DNA from: Parasteatoda tepidariorum
Taxonomy: Eukaryota
Reading direction: 5' to 3'
NCBI RefSeq assembly: GCF_043381705.1
Contig: NC_092205.1
Span: 57,580,995 to 57,615,479, forward strand
Length of the DNA: 34,485 bases
In this document: piece after piece, positions 5,135-34,485 of the stretch
Layout: the number at the start of each line of letters is the position of its first letter
Position numbering within the stretch: position 1 is the stretch's first letter
The notes under the pieces: model-generated
What the model was told of the DNA's origin: nothing
Databases searched by the model: none
What the model saw: only the letters and a program-made list of their open reading frames with translations
Position numbers and translations under genes: made by a program

Positions 5135-7378
5135 TTAAGGTGAAGAAGCAGGTGTTGGAGTATTTACAGCTGTAGAGGCAGGCTGTGGGTATGGGGATTG
5201 TTGAAAATTAGTTTGAAGATTATCACTTTCTGTAGTAGGTTGAGAATGTGGAGTTTCAGGATTAGTTATTTGTTGTTCTACAGGTGTTGGAGGAAGATTC
5301 TGAGAATCTTCTCTTTGTGGTGTAGTGATATGGAGAATTGCAGCTTGAAGGTTGGCTACTTGAAAATTGGCTGCTTCAAGAAGAGCCTTTTGAAGATCAG
5401 AAATTTCATTTAGAGCTGCTTGAAGATCAGCTATTTGCATAGAGTTGTTTTGAACTGAATCTTTTTCTTGGTTTGTATTTTGAAGAGGAGGTTTCTGGGG
5501 TTCAGTTTCAATATCTTGTTTTTGCAATGCACATTGTGAGGGGTCAGCCTGCTGTATTGAGTTAGCTTTGAGGTTTTCAACTTGGGAAAGAGTAGCTTGC
5601 AGCCGAGCCAACAGGGAAGGAGCTTCTTGTAAATGAACTTGTCGAGAAAGTACAGTTTGAAGCTGTGCCAAATGAGATGATGCCATCTGAAGTTGATTCA
5701 TTTGAGCTGGGGATGCTTGGTGGTGAGCTATTTGTGGAGGAATATTTTGACGATGCTCCATTCGAGGAGGAGTCGATTGGTGATGGTTCATTTGGGTGGA
5801 ATCCATTTGAGGATACCCCATGTGATGGTGACTGGCTTGCTGTCGATTGACTGGAGGGGCATTGCCTTGATGTCGTTCCATCATCTGCACATTTGGTGGA
5901 TAACGATTCATGTAATGAGGATTAACACGATTATGGGGCATCTGTGAGGGCAATGGTTGAAGATGATTGGGTCGAGAAGTCATTTGAGGGTGATTCATTT
6001 GTGATGGCATATGTTGTGAATTCTGAGAAGGAGGCATCTGGTAATGAACTGCATGATGACGAGGCATCTGAGCTATATTTTCTTGGTGTTGGCTCATATG
6101 TGATGTATTAGACTGAAAATGACTTCTCTGTGACGTTGGTGGGAAATGAGGAGCCATTGCATGTCCTTGATTCATGTGGGGAGCATTTGTTTGATGATTA
6201 TCTATATTAGGATAGTTAGGTTTATAATGAGGTGGATATTGTTGACGAGGTGACATTTGAGGTGGAGGGGCTGTTTGATGGTGAGAAATTTGTGCTGCAA
6301 CAATCTGCGAATTAGTAGTTTCAGTAGCATTTTGCTCATGATGAGGTCTTAATTGTTGCATAGGTGTCTGACTTCGTGGAGCTTCATGAGGTGAAATAAT
6401 TCTTGGTGGATCTGGTCTTCTACGATATTGTCCAAGTGTAAAAATTGATGAAGGATTGGCACGAGGTAAATATATTGTTATTTTACCTTCATGATAATGT
6501 ATCCTACAATCCATAACTGATATTGCATTAGGAAGATAAAAATAAAATTGGTGATTTGTTTTATTTTCTCTAATAAATAGCTTCTTTCGAGAAGCAAATA
6601 CTTTAACATCTCTAGGATCTAAAAAGGAAAAATATGGCAGAACTACTTGCAACATGAAACCTTTAAATTCTCCTTCAGCAGGAAATTGTCGGATCTCGTA
6701 TTCAATTGAAGGATTTTTAATGTCAAATTCTGGCTTGCGTTCTGTATGAAATTTCCTTATTGTTGTATTTATGGTGAAAGGATCAGAGAAGTATGGCTCT
6801 TTATTATTTCCTTCTTCTGATTTGGACAGAACACCTAATCGTTTGTATACATTTCTCAAAGATTCTGGCATAGTCCCATGATAAAACTTCTTTAACAATT
6901 CAAATTCTTTTTCTAATTTAATGTTATACCTATCATAAATAGCTTTACATGCTGTTTGATATAGGTAATTAAGTCTTTGATCACGGTGACTGTGAGAAAG
7001 TATAGAGTCCATAAATTCTGTTTGAATTATTGTATCATAGCATATGCAAATTTTACCATTTTCATCTCTATCTACACGTTCATCATCTAAATATAAATTA
7101 AATCTTAGAATCGATTCATCTCCACGACTAGTATGAATTTTTGAATTATAAACATTGCAATTTGGTAATTCGAGAGAGTGACAAATATTAATGTAAGCTG
7201 TTTTGTTTTGTTGCGTTTTTCCTTGGAAGCAAAATCCTGGAACAGTAACTAGTGATGGACATTGACTGTGTATTATATTTTTATTTTCTGGGCAAGTAAA
7301 GTCATAGGATTGATCGATTAAGCTATAATCGTAAAGCACTTCATAAAATTTTCCATCTGAACTTCTATTTTCTGCCAT
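5135..7378 (-). CDS. PIH1-domain protein (Kintoun/PIH1D family). It has an N-terminal PIH1 domain and a CS-like beta-sandwich, followed by a ~400-aa Q/H/P/M-rich low-complexity tail that ends in a short coiled-coil-like segment. It appears to be a single coding exon.
   Basis: The ORF track gives a 747-aa uninterrupted ORF. The hallmark N-terminal PIH1 motif is present as VTVPGFCFQGKTQQNKTAYINICHS, where human PIH1D1 has QPQPGFCIKTNSSEGKVFINICHS. A further block, ICICYDTIIQTEFMDS...RYNIKLEKEF, matches PIH1D1's CTAYDVAVNSDFY...KYNLQLNPEW. A CS-like region follows (EYEIRQFPAEGEFKGFMLQVVLP...KITIYLPR). The family is identified by recall, not by a search. Confidence 0.8.
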   Translation of the reverse strand: MAENRSSDGKFYEVLYDYSLIDQSYDFTCPENKNIIHSQCPSLVTVPGFCFQGKTQQNKTAYINICHSLELPNCNVYNSKIHTSRGDESILRFNLYLDDERVDRDENGKICICYDTIIQTEFMDSILSHSHRDQRLNYLYQTACKAIYDRYNIKLEKEFELLKKFYHGTMPESLRNVYKRLGVLSKSEEGNNKEPYFSDPFTINTTIRKFHTERKPEFDIKNPSIEYEIRQFPAEGEFKGFMLQVVLPYFSFLDPRDVKVFASRKKLFIRENKTNHQFYFYLPNAISVMDCRIHYHEGKITIYLPRANPSSIFTLGQYRRRPDPPRIISPHEAPRSQTPMQQLRPHHEQNATETTNSQIVAAQISHHQTAPPPQMSPRQQYPPHYKPNYPNIDNHQTNAPHMNQGHAMAPHFPPTSQRSHFQSNTSHMSQHQENIAQMPRHHAVHYQMPPSQNSQHMPSQMNHPQMTSRPNHLQPLPSQMPHNRVNPHYMNRYPPNVQMMERHQGNAPPVNRQQASHHHMGYPQMDSTQMNHHQSTPPRMEHRQNIPPQIAHHQASPAQMNQLQMASSHLAQLQTVLSRQVHLQEAPSLLARLQATLSQVENLKANSIQQADPSQCALQKQDIETEPQKPPLQNTNQEKDSVQNNSMQIADLQAALNEISDLQKALLEAANFQVANLQAAILHITTPQREDSQNLPPTPVEQQITNPETPHSQPTTESDNLQTNFQQSPYPQPASTAVNTPTPASSP

Positions 7379-9920
7379 ACTGGCAAAAAAATTCCTCCTG
7401 ACTTAACAAGATTTCTAGGCATACATATTTTTCTTTATAATTTTTAATGTAAGCTTGTTACCTTTTTAAAAATTATCATTCAACATTCAAACAGCTTAGA
7501 AAATAATTATATGTAACTTTTCTTAGCATAAAATACAAATAATGATCAATCAGTATTAGCTCTCTGATTACTTAGCAATAATTTTAAAAAAATGATTAAT
7601 TATAGTGTTATTAGTTTCTAGTTATATTTATTAGAAAAATAAAGCATCCGTAAATAGAGAATATTATGTGATCTCCTTATTTGCTAAATAATGAATAATA
7701 GAACCAAAACTAAACAATAGCAGACGTATGAGATACATCTCAAAAGGAAAATAAGTATCTGGCAATATAAATGAAGTGATGGTATGAGGCTTTTTACTAG
7801 CACGCAGTCATTTATAAAGTTTTTCGTTATAAAAATATTTATTTTTACATTTAATCGTGAAAGTGCATTACATTTTTGAAAAACTATGTCGCAAAAATTA
7901 TTAATTTAAATAGAATCGGGAAGGCTATCGCAGGAAAAAAATAAATTATAACTCTCTAATATTTTTATAACTCGTAACCGTTTCGTTTTTTGTTTCCAAC
8001 AAAAACAAAAGTAAACAAACCGGGTAGAATGTAATAGAGATGTTAGGTCTAGTAACAGATCAGTTAATATCGGCATTACCAACAAAAATATGAATTCCAT
8101 TTTTTTTTTTTAATTAAAGGGGGAAATTTTGCACAGGTTGTCAAAAAGACTGGAAAAAATACGAATTTTTTCTTGACCTTACGGGATTCTAAAACAACAC
8201 ATCAAAATTGTAACTAATTGTATAACACTGAAACTAACTCAAAATTTCAAGGGAATAAAAAACAGGTCATTTTTATCTTCAGTCATTAGAGTAAGTGGAC
8301 ATTCAATTTGGCATAAGATAACTCCAATCCTAATGACAATATTTTAAAATCAGAATGTTCTTTAATCTCTAGAAATGTGTAAAGTTTCAAAATATTTAAT
8401 TAGTAGAGTTATGACAGTGAGAAGCATACTCTGAGAAAATTTTCGGAAACAAAATTTAAGGGATATTATCATAACCACGGCAAGTTGGCGAAGAGTCGGC
8501 GGCAATTATAAAGATAACTTCATGAAACAAAGGAAAATATGATAAATCCTATATCCGGACGTTTGTTTCCGGGAAGGGTACACTTTCCGATCATTTTTAA
8601 TGTGAGAGTAAAGAGTTAAGTCAGACGAAAAATAAAAGTTATAATTGAAAATTTTTATTTTCTCTTTAAATCATTGACAAAAAGTAAACTGAAACATTTG
8701 TGCCAATGTGTTTATTCTCTATTAAGTTAATCCCTTAATAATTTTTAAATTCAGTTGGAGCAAAATGTGAAATCTTCTCTGTTTAATGAACAGGTGCAAA
8801 TCATGTTTTGTTTTGAAATTTTGTCTTCAGGTATTATCTTATATCTTGCTTGTTCCTTTGGACAGTTAAGTTTTCTTTGCTAATTAGTTCCTGTGGAGTT
8901 GGGTGTAATTGTAACTGTGATGTAATTGTTTTCCTTTCTCGTATTCTTAATTATTCCCTTGAATTAATTTTTAATGGAGGAAAATAATTTATATTTTTCC
9001 TTATAAATTTGAAAAAGAATTAAAATAAAAAATAGTTGTAATGTTTTCTTTTTTCCAAATTTATTTTTGTTTAAATACATTTTTTAATGATTATTCCTAT
9101 TTAAATTAAAATTTTTTAATTTTTATTAATTAATATTGTTATTTATTTATTTTTGCTGTTGGGGGAAATTTTATGTATTTTTTTGGCCTAAAATTGTTTT
9201 TATTTGGGGTCCATTATTTAAATTTTTTTTTCCTGAATACAAAATGAATGATTATATTTTAATTTGATGTTATTTTAATTAATTTTACTGTAATTATTGA
9301 ATAAAAAATAATTATGTATTTTGCATATTTGGTAGTGTTTGATCTTAGTTTTGGCTTTATTAGGGACCATATATAGCCTAGACAAATTATTTTTTTTTCG
9401 AATACAAGAAAAATAATCATACTTTTCTTTAATCTTCATTAATAATATTTTTTACAGTTATTTAATCAAAAATATTTACAATTATTGTGAATTTGGTTGA
9501 ATTCGTTCTTTGTTTTGACATACCTTTTTTGATTGGGGATCTATTACCTAGAAAATATTTATGAATGCAAGTTAAATTAAATTTATTATACTTTTTGAAA
9601 GAGAAACTTTTTTTTTAATTGGCTGATTTTGTAATTCTTTGATGTGACTTTATTTTGTTTAGTGACTTGTAAAGTATTTCCTGCATATAGATATATACTA
9701 ACAATCATACTTTTATATGACCTCTCTGAAGTTAATATAACAAAAACATTTTAGTCTTTCAATTTAATTTTACTTTTTGCTTTATCAAGTCTAGTCAATT
9801 TACTGTCTTAATGTTGCTCTTAGAAATTAAGGTTGTAACTTTTCACTTTAATTTAAAAGTAATGTTTTTAAAACAGTTGTTATAATTCTATTTCTGATGT
9901 TATCTATTTCCATAGGAATA

Positions 9921-10078
9921 ATGCCGAGTGATAAAAGTGGTGTCCCTGCAAGTCAGGGCAATGATAAGAGCATTTATCGCATACCTCCGTACATGTATAT
10001 GCATGTATTGGATCAGACTGCAAATGTCACTAGAGTTGAAGCAGGTCCAAAGACATATGTGCGGCAAGAGAACGAACG
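9921..10078 (+). CDS. MVP: Major vault protein, coding exon 1 ([53 protein letters not shown]). The exon ends in phase 2 with a CG|gtaaag donor.
   Basis: Aligns to the human MVP N-terminus ([37 protein letters not shown]). The ATG at 9921 has an A at -3 and sits just after a possible acceptor, tttccatag at 9915. An in-frame upstream ATG at 9897 would add MLSISIGI and is considered less likely. Confidence 0.85.
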
Positions 10079-11061
10079 GTAAAGAAAATTATTTCTTCTG
10101 TTTCAACATTATTATTGGTATTTTAAATCTTTTTGCTGTTTAGATTTAGTTGCTTTTAAAGACATTAAAAGCACTAAGTGCTCTTTTTCTTAAATCTTAA
10201 ATAAAATATCAGCTCTTTCTCCTTCATCTATTCGTACAAAAGTTTTTAAATAGATTTGGATAATTGCTTAACATTAGTTATAAAATCATAGCATATGAAG
10301 TAATCAAAACATCTTTATACTGAGTCATTAAAAGGAAACTGGCAGTGTTCAGAAATTCATACGTGTGAATCTTTTGAAAGTATCTAATAAAACCTTAAGT
10401 GCATGTTGCATCGATCACTATAGAAAAAGTTTAAAGCTTCATTGATGATCTGGTGCCGTGCTGTTAAAATTACATGCATATGTTCAGTACACAAAGAAAC
10501 CCACCCGATATAGCTTTTGATCTAGTGAGTGGATCTTCATATACTTTCAAATACACCTTTTTACAACAAAAAAAAAGTCTATTTGATTTAATAATAATCA
10601 TTTTAAAGAATGTAAATTGTGTGGTAATTGTGTGTGAATGTAAATTTGTGGCAAAATCCAAAATTTGAACGACATCGATTGAGTAGCTCCTGAGAAATAT
10701 AATTTTAAATATACAATTTTTTTAAATTAGGTTTCGCAGGAACCAACTGATTTTGTTCAAATTTTTAATTTTGTCATATGAAATTACATTTTTTTATTAA
10801 TATTAAATGAAATAGTAATAAAAAATAAAACAATTGGGTACAAATGTTTGTATGATTCTCAGATTTTTTTTATAGATCTTGGATATTTTTACATTTCTGA
10901 TTTCAAATCAGCAATCAGTTTCTCCGACAAAGCTGCAGTTTGTTTAAACGATATTTTTAATCTATTTTTTGTCGAAATGTACCAGTTAAAAAACATAATA
11001 TGTAGTGACGGCCGCATAAATGTCGCAACAAACTCTTAGGGGAGTTAAAACACAATATCAC

Positions 11062-15660: not shown

Positions 15661-15792
15661 GGAGAAAAGTCTTTTTTTATGAAACCTGGTGAGCGATTAG
15701 AATCTGGTATTCAAGATGTTCATGTCTTGAGTGAAAATGAGGGTTTGGTATTGAAAGCAAGAGAGGCATTTTTAGATAATAGTGAAACACCG
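15661..15792 (+). CDS. MVP: Major vault protein exon 6 ([44 protein letters not shown]).
   Basis: Acceptor ttattttag|GGA, donor CCG|gtatgt. Aligns to human [44 protein letters not shown]. Confidence 0.85.
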
Positions 15793-16261
15793 GTATGTTT
15801 ATTGATGTGTAATAATAATTATCAAAACTTTGTATTATAATAATTATCAAAATTTATTGTAATAAATTTGTAAACTACTCTGTATTAAGTTTTGTTTGTA
15901 TTATCGAACTTGTTTATCTCGAATCTCATGGGAAAGGCTAAAAATTTGAGATAAAAGAGGTTTTGAGTTATACAGGTACTTTAAAAAAATTTTAATTTAA
16001 TTAAGAAATTCTATTAAAAGTGCTTTAAATGTTTTTAGTAGAAAAATATAGGTATTTTTTTCAAATTAATTATACCACATACATCACATACATACCACAT
16101 ACATAACATTTTTTAACATACATTTAACATGGGAAACAATTTATCAAAGATTTTTGATGTATAACCTTATTTGTTTTGATTATTCTTTTAAGGTTAGAAA
16201 GAGCGTAAATCCCTCACAGCCAACATTTTTCTGGGATTCAAGAATAGTTTATAAAAATTAT

Positions 16262-16760
16262 ACAGCTTTTTCTACCTCTTTTGCATTCACTTTTGGTTCA
16301 TCAATATGATCTTCAGCATCTTCCTTGTCATCTAATATTCCTTTGACATTATCTATGATTTCTGCATCTGTCAATGTTCCATATGTTACCAGGCAGTTGT
16401 CCACTTGTTAAAATCTTCAAAATTAATGTCCACATTTAATCCAGATTTTGTTACATTCCATTCTGGCAAATCCGGCACTGCATTTTCAGCCTCAACAGTT
16501 TCTTCTTTACTGACGCTTTCAACCTCTTGTTCATCATCTTCACAGCTATTCTTAAAACCAGCTTTTTAAAACCATTATGGATAGTTTTTAGAGACACATT
16601 TCTCCAGGCAAACTTTGCATACCAACTGTTTTTTATAGTTCACTTTAAAACTTCTAATTATCCTTTGATCCATTAGTTGCAATTTTGATATGAAAATGAA
16701 TTTATATTCTTAGCTTTCTTATCTATGATGAAAAGCTAGCCCTTAGTGGTCACTACTCAT
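16262..16760 (-). mobile_element. Decayed pogo/Tigger-like transposase remnant (frameshifts and stop codons) inside MVP intron 6.
   Basis: Reverse-strand translation yields pogo-family motifs in shifting frames: SKLQLMDQRIIRSFKVNYKKQ (compare LQPMDQGVI..K..YRR), AWRNVSLKTIHNGFKKLV (compare AW..V....I.NCF.KAG), and an acidic tail DLPEWNVTKSGLNVDINFEDFNKW / VTYGTLTDAEIIDNVKGILDDKEDAEDHIDE that resembles the tail of the 34100..34462 ORF. Confidence 0.55.
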
Positions 16761-18841: not shown

Positions 18842-18991
18842 GCTATCAATCGCAAGCCTGGAGATCGATGGATGATTAATGGTCCAGCAGAATACATCCC
18901 ACCTACTGAAGTCGAAATAGTCACTAAAAGATATTCCATCGCTTTAGATGAGAATGAAGGCATTTATGTTAGAAATATAAAAACAGGACAT
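18842..18991 (+). CDS. MVP: Major vault protein exon 7 ([50 protein letters not shown]).
   Basis: Acceptor aaatttag|GCT, donor CAT|gtgagt. Aligns to human [50 protein letters not shown]. Confidence 0.85.
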
Positions 18992-19163
18992 GTGAGTAAA
19001 AAAATTTTACCAGTATTTGTTATTTCTTTGATACTAAATTTCTATTTTCCTAAAAGTGCTTTTTACATTAAATACAATTTAAAGAGAAAAAAAAATCTCT
19101 TTGAATAGTCTTTGATAAAGCTTTTCAGAGTTAACGAGCATTTTCTTTAAGTAACAGCTTACT

Positions 19164-28561: not shown

Positions 28562-29337
28562 CAGGGCTCGAAAAACCACCCGTCCTCGGCGGTCAAAAAT
28601 TCCCCACGGACAAAAAATTTCTCTAATCCAGCGTCCGCGCGGACGGCCGTTTTCCCGTAAATGTTCGTGATACATTTTAAATTTTTTTTATCTTACAAGA
28701 GTCTACCGCCTCACTTCTAAAATGACCCTCTGATCTCGAAATACAGCAACACACTGTGCATGGTGGAATTGATGTTTTCTCTGTCAGGGAGTACTGCAGC
28801 GGTTGAAAGGGGCTTTTCAGCAATGAACTTACAAAAAAACACATTACTTACTGGTCTTAAACAAGAAGCGTTAAACGCATTTATGAACATCTACCTAAAT
28901 GGAAAACCTCTTTCAGATTTCTGTGCAGAAACCTCTGTAAAATATTGGCTTGATTGTGGAACTGGCAAACGTCATATTTGATTCATTTAAAAAACGCAGT
29001 ACCATCGGATAAATTGACATAATTGACAGATAACTTAACCTTTGTTATTTAAATTATTTCATCAAAGAAATAAATTATTTCATAATAGAAATACTAGGTT
29101 TTACTAATAGTACCCTAGTATTTCTTTTATTACTGTATAATGTAATCCTAGTATTTGTAATCGTAATAACTACTAACTAATTCATTGTGCAATTTATATA
29201 AATGTTTGTAATAAATAAGAGAAAATTATATTTTTATTTATTTAGAAGCGACGGGTTAATTTCAAAGGAGGATGGGTAAATTGTTGGACAAGCGGTCCTC
29301 GGGGACGGGTAAAATTTCTGAGTTTTTTCGAGCCCTG
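28562..29337 (+). mobile_element. Nonautonomous, internally deleted hAT-superfamily DNA transposon of 776 bp. It has a perfect 8-bp target-site duplication GCTTGTAA (28554..28561 and 29338..29345) and roughly 16-bp terminal inverted repeats CAGGGCTCGAAAAAAC.
   Basis: The 5' end reads cttgcttgtaa|CAGGGCTCGAAAAACCACCCGTCCTCGGCGGTC and the 3' end reads GCGGTCCTCGGGGACGGGT...TTTTTTCGAGCCCTG|gcttgtaata. The ends are reverse complements of each other. The CAGGG terminus and 8-bp TSD are hAT hallmarks. An internal ORF encodes a hATC dimerisation-domain remnant. Confidence 0.8.
28760..28981 (+). pseudogene. hAT transposase C-terminal dimerisation-domain (hATC) remnant, 73 codons. It is all that is left of the transposase after an internal deletion.
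   Basis: The ORF track protein ...LSGSTAAVERGFSAMNLQKNTLLTGLKQEALNAFMNI... carries the conserved hATC signature S-x-x-x-x-ER-x-FS followed by a hydrophobic R/K..L....L..L pattern. The BED and RNase-H-like domains are absent. Confidence 0.7.
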
Positions 29338-33512: not shown

Positions 33513-33828
33513 CAAACTCTTTATTTTATTATTATGTATATGGAACTAATAGCTGTTATCATCAAAAACACTTTTGAGCCATTATGAGATTGTGGCTTAT
33601 TGCTTCAAGCCTTTCAAATATAGTTATTTTTATATTGCTGTTCTAAATCAGCCCTGACACAATATGTTATGTGCCATTAATAAATTTCTTCATTAAATTT
33701 CTGTGATAAAAAACAGTATTGTTTGCTAGATGTGGCCTTAAATTGTAGTATAAATATGAATTTGGCTTCTTGACATGCAATTAAGAGCTTCTATCAAAAT
33801 TTATCTAGTATAGAAATATATATATATA

Positions 33829-34485
33829 CAGTAGACGCCGCTTAATGTGATCACATCGGGACGAACATGATTTGATAACAATAACCGATTGATTACAATA
33901 AACAAAAAAAAAAGTTAAGCTAAAAAATGATTTTTTTTACATACGTATTAAAATAAAAAATATTTTAAATTAGGAGTTGTTGCTGTAAGACTCTGAAGTA
34001 TTTAATAGAAATTAATGTACACTAAAGAAAAAGTATTAGTATACTCACATATTTATTGATAAACTGCAGAAAACAATACAAAATACAAAAGGTTAATTAT
34101 TAACTGAAAAAGAAATCATCAATTGTCGATTGTTTAGCATTCTTTCGAAGCAATTCATTTACGAATCGCTCATAATCATAATGTTTATGAAAGTGTTCCG
34201 CGTCGGCTTTGTTTTGCACACCTAGCCGTAAGACTCGAAGTGCCTCCCTCATCTGAGCAGGCGTCGGAATTTTGTCCTCGATAGCACTTTCAGATTCATC
34301 ATCGGCATCAGAATCTTGTGACGAAGACACATCTGACACATATGGTTTCTGATGGTGATCTTTGACACATATGGCTTCGCAAATGTCCTCATCAGTTAAC
34401 GAAGTAGAAGTCTCAACCTTCTCGTCGATCTCCATCCATGCTTCAAAATCCTCAGCATTCATATCGGGCGGGGGATTGAAAACGT
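33829..34485 (-). mobile_element. pogo/Tigger-like (Tc1/mariner superfamily) DNA transposon, 3' portion. The element continues beyond the window end. Its terminus CAGTAGACGCCGC abuts TA within a (TA)n tract (TA at 33827..33828).
   Basis: A minus-strand ORF encodes the acidic C-terminal tail typical of pogo-like transposases. About 270 bp of non-coding sequence lies between the stop codon (34100..34102) and the CAGT... terminus next to TA, which fits a pogo TA target site and CAGT-type TIR. Confidence 0.55.
34100..34485 (-). CDS. pogo/Tigger-like DDE transposase, C-terminal 120+ aa. It is partial, and the ORF remains open to the window edge.
   Basis: The ORF track gives MNAEDFEAWMEIDEKVETSTSLTDEDICEAICVKDHH...SDADDESESAIEDK.... 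This acidic tail with the ...EDF..W...TSLTDE(E/D)I..A(I/V) motif is characteristic of the pogo family. The 23 nt upstream in the same frame (VFNPPPD) contain no stop. It is homologous to the decayed fragment at 16262..16400. Confidence 0.6.
   Translation of the reverse strand, partial: VFNPPPDMNAEDFEAWMEIDEKVETSTSLTDEDICEAICVKDHHQKPYVSDVSSSQDSDADDESESAIEDKIPTPAQMREALRVLRLGVQNKADAEHFHKHYDYERFVNELLRKNAKQSTIDDFFFS

Follow-up and report, generated by a model that had tools for sequence, protein, structure and literature searches.

The 3' end of a Tigger-family DNA transposon downstream of MVP in the spider Parasteatoda tepidariorum

Tigger transposons, described from human (Tigger1 and Tigger2) as well as from arthropods, are cut-and-paste DNA elements of the pogo superfamily within the IS630-Tc1-mariner group. 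Published elements are about 2.8 kb long and carry an ORF of about 492 aa, terminal inverted repeats (TIRs) of 8-33 bp and a TA target-site duplication (TSD) (Diaby et al. 2022, PMC9219625), and the catalytic spacing of the family ranges over DD29-36D (Gao et al. 2020, PMC7386202). Their relative Drosophila pogo encodes a transposase that binds PCNA via a PIP-type motif, at least as Warbrick 1998 is cited in later papers (PMC4231638, PMC5371812); the consensus of the PIP box is Qxx[I/L/M]xxF[F/Y] (PMC5371812). Human Tigger and Lemi1 have kept the motif seen in pogo, whose functional relevance is described as unclear (PMC5371812, PMC4231638). Homologous DNA-binding and DDE_1 domains are also found in domesticated genes of the TIGD, CENP-B and POGK type, which are single-copy, immobile and without TIRs.

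The window analysed here, a stretch of 34,485 nucleotides from Parasteatoda tepidariorum with a base composition of about 28% G+C, almost certainly ends in one insertion of such an element: positions 33829-34485, on the minus strand, are best read as the right-hand (3') 657 bp of a Tigger-family transposon, and nothing found contradicts this classification. Only three ORFs of at least 100 aa occur in the whole window, one of which is the tail of the transposase. The earlier note on this DNA had described it as a minus-strand ORF of 120 aa, open at the window edge, and this is borne out: the ORF listing gives 120 aa counted from the first ATG (34100..34462), and the frame continues unbroken up to the edge, so that 127 sense codons (34103-34483) precede a TAA at 34100-34102. 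The peptide contains the serine- and acid-rich stretch SSSQDSDADDESESAIED, ends in ...RKNAKQSTIDDFFFS, and carries the motif QSTIDDFF (34109-34132) three residues before its C-terminus.

Beyond the stop codon, on the same strand, lies a 3' untranslated or subterminal region (33855-34099) with two copies of the motif TTATTGT[A/T]ATCAA (33872-33884 and 33889-33901), followed by a 26-bp right TIR at 33829-33854, which reads CAGTAGACGCCGCTTAATGTGATCAC inward from the terminus. The outermost 13-mer, CAGTAGACGCCGC, is found once in the window (33829-33841), 271 nt past the stop codon, and is preceded by a TA (33827-33828, read directly) that is presumably one copy of the target-site duplication and closes an (AT)n run at 33816-33828. 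The earlier note had placed the end of the element about 270 bp past the stop, next to a TA inside a (TA)n tract, just where it is found. By itself the 13-mer is not significant (matches with at most three mismatches turned up in 36 of 100 shuffles), and the reality of the terminus therefore had to come from comparison with other copies. Poly(A) signals (AATAAA) are present on the minus strand, for example at 34057-34052, although, given how AT-rich the region is, they were left out of the evidence. With gathering thresholds applied, Rfam gave no match anywhere in the window.

The 127-aa fragment alone gave no match in a Pfam scan, because Pfam models do not cover the transposase tail, and when the remainder of the window was searched with it by blastn and tblastn, no further member of the family turned up, nothing but AT-rich noise of low complexity. 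When I queried a large protein collection with the fragment, short fragments alone were returned, one of them from the spider Oedothorax gibbosus; directly upstream of this protein, at the locus here called L001, is a gene model with an HTH_Tnp_Tc5 domain. A conceptual, frame-repaired translation of the L001 copy was then used as the homologue query and retrieved 940 proteins. Among the matches listed, which are mostly about 500 aa long, PF03184 (DDE_1) is found, mostly together with PF03221 (HTH_Tnp_Tc5), and for many the source gives the name 'tigger transposable element-derived protein 2/4/6-like'.

The 90% cluster of the closest match holds two P. tepidariorum proteins, P0252 (507 aa, XP_042896068.1) and P0254 (508 aa, XP_042901068.1). 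P0252 matches DDE_1 with E=2e-47, HTH_Tnp_Tc5 with E=4e-15 and CENP-B_N with E=0.003 (below the curated cut-off), and its catalytic triad, D171/D272/D303, is DD30D, which falls within the DD29-36D range reported for Tigger (PMC7386202). The window fragment aligns by BLASTP to residues 390-507 of P0252 with E=6e-79 (leaving aside one insertion of 9 aa, 113 of 118 residues are identical), and window positions 34474-34109 on the minus strand match a profile of about 95 full-length homologues with an i-E of 7e-25, covering profile positions 396-510 of 511. The window ORF is therefore the C-terminal quarter of a Tigger-type transposase. Thus the earlier reading of its end as the acidic C-terminal tail of a pogo-family transposase holds, the fragment being Tigger-type by BLASTP, tblastn and profile alike. 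Placement in Tigger as opposed to a sister pogo clade should be taken as provisional, since it follows from the domain set, the DD30D spacing and the names given by the sources.

The earlier note had also suggested looking for DDE and HTH domains and for a matching inverted terminus past the window edge, and running tblastn with Tigger or pogo transposases. At the level of the family, both features are present: the full-length proteins of the same species in the 90% cluster carry DDE_1 and HTH_Tnp_Tc5, and the O. gibbosus copies carry the inverted repeat and a TA at their other end. The DDE_1 and DNA-binding domains are thus seen in family members, and the same region of the window copy falls beyond base 34485. 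Full-length Tigger-type homologues (P0007, P0008, P0017 and others) used as tblastn queries matched the window ORF with E of about 1e-17 to 1e-22.

Comparison with related copies fixes the ends of the element. The reverse complement of window positions 33827-34485 aligns to L001 10113-10748 with 87% identity including gaps. The L001 element is a complete but degraded copy of 2,643 bp (8104-10746), with the same stop codon position as the window copy and P0252; its left end reads TA followed by CAGTACACGCCGCTTAATGTGATCAC, its right end reads GTGATCACATTAAGCGGCGTCTACTG followed by TA, and the flanking TA dinucleotides lie at 8102-8103 and 10747-10748. L003, at a second O. gibbosus locus (5694-6842), is an internal-deletion derivative of 1,149 bp that has the 26-bp repeats at both ends and is likewise flanked by TA on both sides (5692-5693 and 6843-6844). 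L002, on an ENA contig, is another deletion derivative, in which family positions of about 250 and 2112 are joined; its right end is as in the window, and in both of these copies a TA adjoins the right terminus.

In a four-way alignment of the window copy with L001, L002 and L003, homology runs through ...GGCGTCTACTG-TA and is then gone: beyond CTACTG-TA only 6-8 of 22 flanking positions are identical, and the flanks are unrelated in all four copies. Four independent insertions thus all end in CTACTG followed by TA, in agreement with the TA target and CAGT-type TIR that had been proposed from the window alone. Window positions 33829-33854 have no mismatch to the right TIRs of L001 and L003 and one or two mismatches to their left TIRs when inverted. 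The left and right ends resemble each other for 26 bp and no further, which sets the length of the TIR. The subterminal sequence beside the window TIR is of the right-end type, consistent with the orientation of the ORF. The TA duplication and both TIRs are shown in L001 and L003, and the window copy shows one end. Over the 3' untranslated region and TIR together, the window copy is identical to the O. gibbosus and ENA copies at 243/261, 246/261 and 250/267 positions (93-94%). The family has copies on three or more P. tepidariorum chromosomes, on two O. gibbosus chromosomes and on ENA and Logan contigs.

The pair of TTATTGT[A/T]ATCAA motifs is conserved in L001, L002 and L003. In L001 the motif occurs at 8132-8144, 8195-8207, 10669-10681 and 10686-10698; near the left ends of L001 and L003 there are two to four copies, all in the same direct orientation as at the right ends, and elsewhere in the window only two matches occur on both strands together. 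By way of speculation, it may be a putative accessory binding site for the transposase.

Two further observations concern these copies. L002 is contig k141_54862 of an ENA assembly labelled 'metagenome' (ERZ27311415) and is about 94% identical to the window copy (over the tail, as given above); the sample presumably contains DNA of a spider or another arthropod. Furthermore, the segment LLLIDNCTAH, which includes the second catalytic D, is missing in L001 (around 9760-9790) and in the proteins P0011 and P0253. This loss could reflect a shared deletion derivative that has spread, independent events, or artefacts of the gene models.

The full element of this family is about 2.6 kb long, has 26-bp TIRs starting CAGTA and duplicated TA flanks, and encodes one protein of about 507 aa, laid out as an N-terminal CENP-B-like/HTH_Tnp_Tc5 region, a DDE_1 core, an acidic linker and a C-terminal PIP box. 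Such a layout fits the description of Tigger in PMC9219625. The likeness to the Tigger family (human Tigger1/Tigger2 and arthropod Tigger; PMC7386202, PMC9219625) takes in the combination of DDE_1 and HTH_Tnp_Tc5 with a weak CENP-B_N match, the DD30D triad, the single ORF of about 500 aa, the length of the element, its TIRs and TA duplication, and the acidic tail with its PIP box. What differs is the lineage: this is a spider element, and the nearest non-spider full-length homologues found are about 45-59% identical. With Drosophila melanogaster pogo the element shares the superfamily, the cut-and-paste mode, TA targets, a C-terminal PIP box and the frequent occurrence of internal-deletion derivatives. 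However, the two proteins are no more than distant relatives, the elements differ in TIR and subterminal sequence, and PCNA binding is a prediction in the case of the spider protein. The inverted repeat of pogo also starts CAGTA, with CGCTTA at the same offset as in the spider TIR. In sum, the spider element is an ordinary Tigger/pogo transposon, another member of a well-known family.

Whether the particular copy in the window can still move is a different matter. The earlier note called it apparently intact, young and potentially active, which the data do not support: only 25% of the transposase ORF (the last 127 codons) is visible, and that quarter already carries changes of its own. Five of 118 residues differ from the intact paralogues, 17 substitutions in 612 aligned nucleotides (~2.8%) are private to the window copy, and so is an in-frame insertion of 27 nt at 34329-34355, a partial tandem duplication that is absent from L001, L002, L003 and P0252 and adds about nine residues (HHQKPYVSD...) to the acidic linker. 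The direct repeat behind this duplication is TGACACATATGG(T/C)TTC, at 34334-34349 and 34363-34378. With about 3% private nucleotide changes and the 27-nt duplication, the window copy is somewhat older than the recently active members of its family. On these numbers, its integrity beyond the window edge is likelier compromised than intact.

The reading that survives best is that the window copy is defective, either as an internally deleted, non-autonomous derivative or as a dead copy with point mutations, which would be mobilised only in trans, if at all. I consider this likely. Two of the three related copies of defined structure are internal deletions (L002 and the 1,149-bp L003), the third (L001) has multiple stops and frameshifts, several gene models of the same species are truncated or without the second catalytic D (P0011, P0253, P0250 and P0257), and the private divergence of the window copy points the same way. 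Set against this, the window copy stays collinear with the full-length sequence all the way to the edge, which is further in than the breakpoint of L002, and its visible reading frame is intact.

The opposite reading, that the window copy is a full-length, coding-competent and potentially autonomous element, is unlikely, although several facts speak for it: the 127 visible codons contain neither stops nor frameshifts, the right TIR is perfect, the sole coding indel keeps the frame and is confined to the acidic linker, and the two 507-aa ORFs, identical and on different P. tepidariorum chromosomes, make it evident that the family is live. But three quarters of the ORF lie out of view, and if the rate of change in the visible quarter, with its private substitutions, replaced residues and duplication, is extrapolated over the remaining ~1.17 kb (390 codons), at least one stop or frameshift becomes the likelier outcome, by estimate and not by computation. 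Furthermore, deletion derivatives that keep the same 3' region are frequent (L002, L003 and P0011/P0253).

P0252 and P0254, which are encoded on different chromosomes, are identical over 507 aa, a change in the stop codon adding one residue to the latter. This identity points to very recent transposition in P. tepidariorum, and the family has been recently active in this species.

That the ORF belongs to a domesticated, Tigger-derived host gene of the TIGD type and not to a mobile element is highly improbable. It would account for the open reading frame and for the NCBI names of its paralogues ('tigger transposable element-derived protein 4-like'). Such genes, however, are single-copy and immobile and have neither TIR nor TSD, and here a perfect TIR terminus is followed by TA, copies are dispersed over unrelated sites on several chromosomes of two species, and deletion derivatives exist. 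The non-coding parts of the element are, moreover, as conserved as its coding parts, and there is therefore no sign of selection on the protein alone. On these grounds the TIGD-like identity was rejected. The idea of a chance ORF beside a chance CAGT...TA string in AT-rich DNA, to which the unremarkable statistics of the 13-mer with up to three mismatches lend their only colour, is refuted by the profile match (i-E 7e-25) and by an 87-94% DNA identity over 657 nt to copies in another species that stops exactly at the terminus, and its probability is negligible.

The closeness of the copies from P. tepidariorum, a theridiid, and O. gibbosus, a linyphiid, was also set beside the divergence of a host gene. 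Window positions 33829-34485 were compared with L001 10113-10746 and L003 6215-6842. The coding part of the element is 95% identical between the species (336/354 and 335/354), its untranslated tail and TIR are 93-94% identical, and its four-fold degenerate sites agree at 34 of 36 and 35 of 36 positions. In the host gene MVP, by contrast, the two species share 78% of amino acids, four-fold sites are saturated at 31% identity (71/229), and the introns do not align. Within O. gibbosus, the divergence between the two copies equals the divergence of the element between the species. High identity of an element against a saturated host background is the classical signature of horizontal transfer for elements of the Tc1/mariner/pogo type. 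An element that is 93-95% identical while neutral sites of the host MVP are saturated points to such a transfer, and the family was probably exchanged horizontally in recent times between Parasteatoda and Oedothorax, or acquired by both from some third source, and its transposition in P. tepidariorum probably still continues. With a single host gene and four copies behind it, the case amounts to a lead, short of a demonstration. A literature search for transfer of transposable elements among spiders involving Parasteatoda found no specific report.

How such an element would move can be outlined by analogy with its pogo and Tc1-mariner relatives. The N-terminal helix-turn-helix domains would bind the TIRs, and the DDD core would excise the element and reinsert it at a TA. 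If the window copy were intact, its left TIR would be expected to read GTGATCACATTAAGCGGCG[T/G]CTACTG on the plus strand, followed by TA. The C-terminal QSTIDDFF matches Qxx[I/L/M]xxF[F/Y], the canonical PIP box, and PCNA binding is predicted from this motif. Of 95 full-length homologues, 56 have a PIP-type motif among their last 20 residues, as against 0.3% of shuffled tails. By analogy, the tail may dock the transposase on PCNA, and transposition would then presumably be coupled to replication or repair. The spider family thereby adds a further well-conserved case of a PIP box right at the C-terminal end of pogo-type transposases, where its role is still described as unclear (PMC5371812).

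The surroundings of the element were mapped through MVP, whose exons were located with a probe MVP sequence used for exon finding only. They lie on the plus strand from 9957 to 31956; stitched together, they are 98% identical to P. tepidariorum XP_015912405.1 and at most 78% identical to MVP of other spiders. This puts the transposon, which is oriented opposite to MVP, about 1.9 kb downstream of the final exon detected. A 245-aa N-terminal gene model, P0250, is encoded on the same 105-Mb chromosome as MVP.

The earlier note further mentioned a decayed paralogue in MVP intron 6, a claim that holds weakly as to place and not as to kinship. There is a decayed Tigger-like remnant at 16225-16703 on the minus strand, seen as three collinear, frame-shifted and low-scoring protein matches (16225-16688) between the MVP exons 15661-15759 and 18845-19027, an interval that is intron 6 if exon 9957-10079 is counted as the first coding exon. 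Full-length family members used as tblastn queries match it with E=2e-5 at best, and the profile does so at positions 300-326, 355-377 and 404-479 with i-E values of 0.002 to 0.06; the matches include QP(L)DQ(G)IIRSFK and AW..VS..TI.N.F. The Pfam DDE_1 model reaches only E=0.12 on the remnant, and blastn within the window finds no DNA similarity between the remnant and the element at the window edge. It looks real, though very old, and would derive from the C-terminal half of a transposase of a different, distant Tigger-like lineage, an assignment that these similarities confirm weakly.

Other features of the window lie apart from the transposon. A non-exonic stretch in an MVP intron (28562-29244) is 79% identical to L004 21257-21929, a sequence downstream of MVP in O. 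gibbosus, and the ORF at 28760-28981 on the plus strand has a faint match to the hAT dimerisation domain (E=0.18). Going by these similarities, the stretch is probably a hAT transposon remnant common to both spiders. Upstream of MVP, an uninterrupted ORF of 747 aa on the minus strand (5135-7378) matches the PIH1 N-terminal domain with E=5e-12 and lies in a region of higher G+C with a strong GC skew. Presumably the ORF represents a host gene without introns, of the PIH1/kintoun type.

For the window itself, the finding is of little consequence except for annotation, in which these bases should be masked as the end of a Tigger/pogo DNA transposon and taken neither for a host gene nor for a regulatory feature downstream of MVP. 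The clear signature of horizontal transfer between two spider families is a modest point of interest. Finally, the family looks recently active in a spider that serves as a developmental model, where it could give rise to insertional polymorphism or provide a candidate tool.
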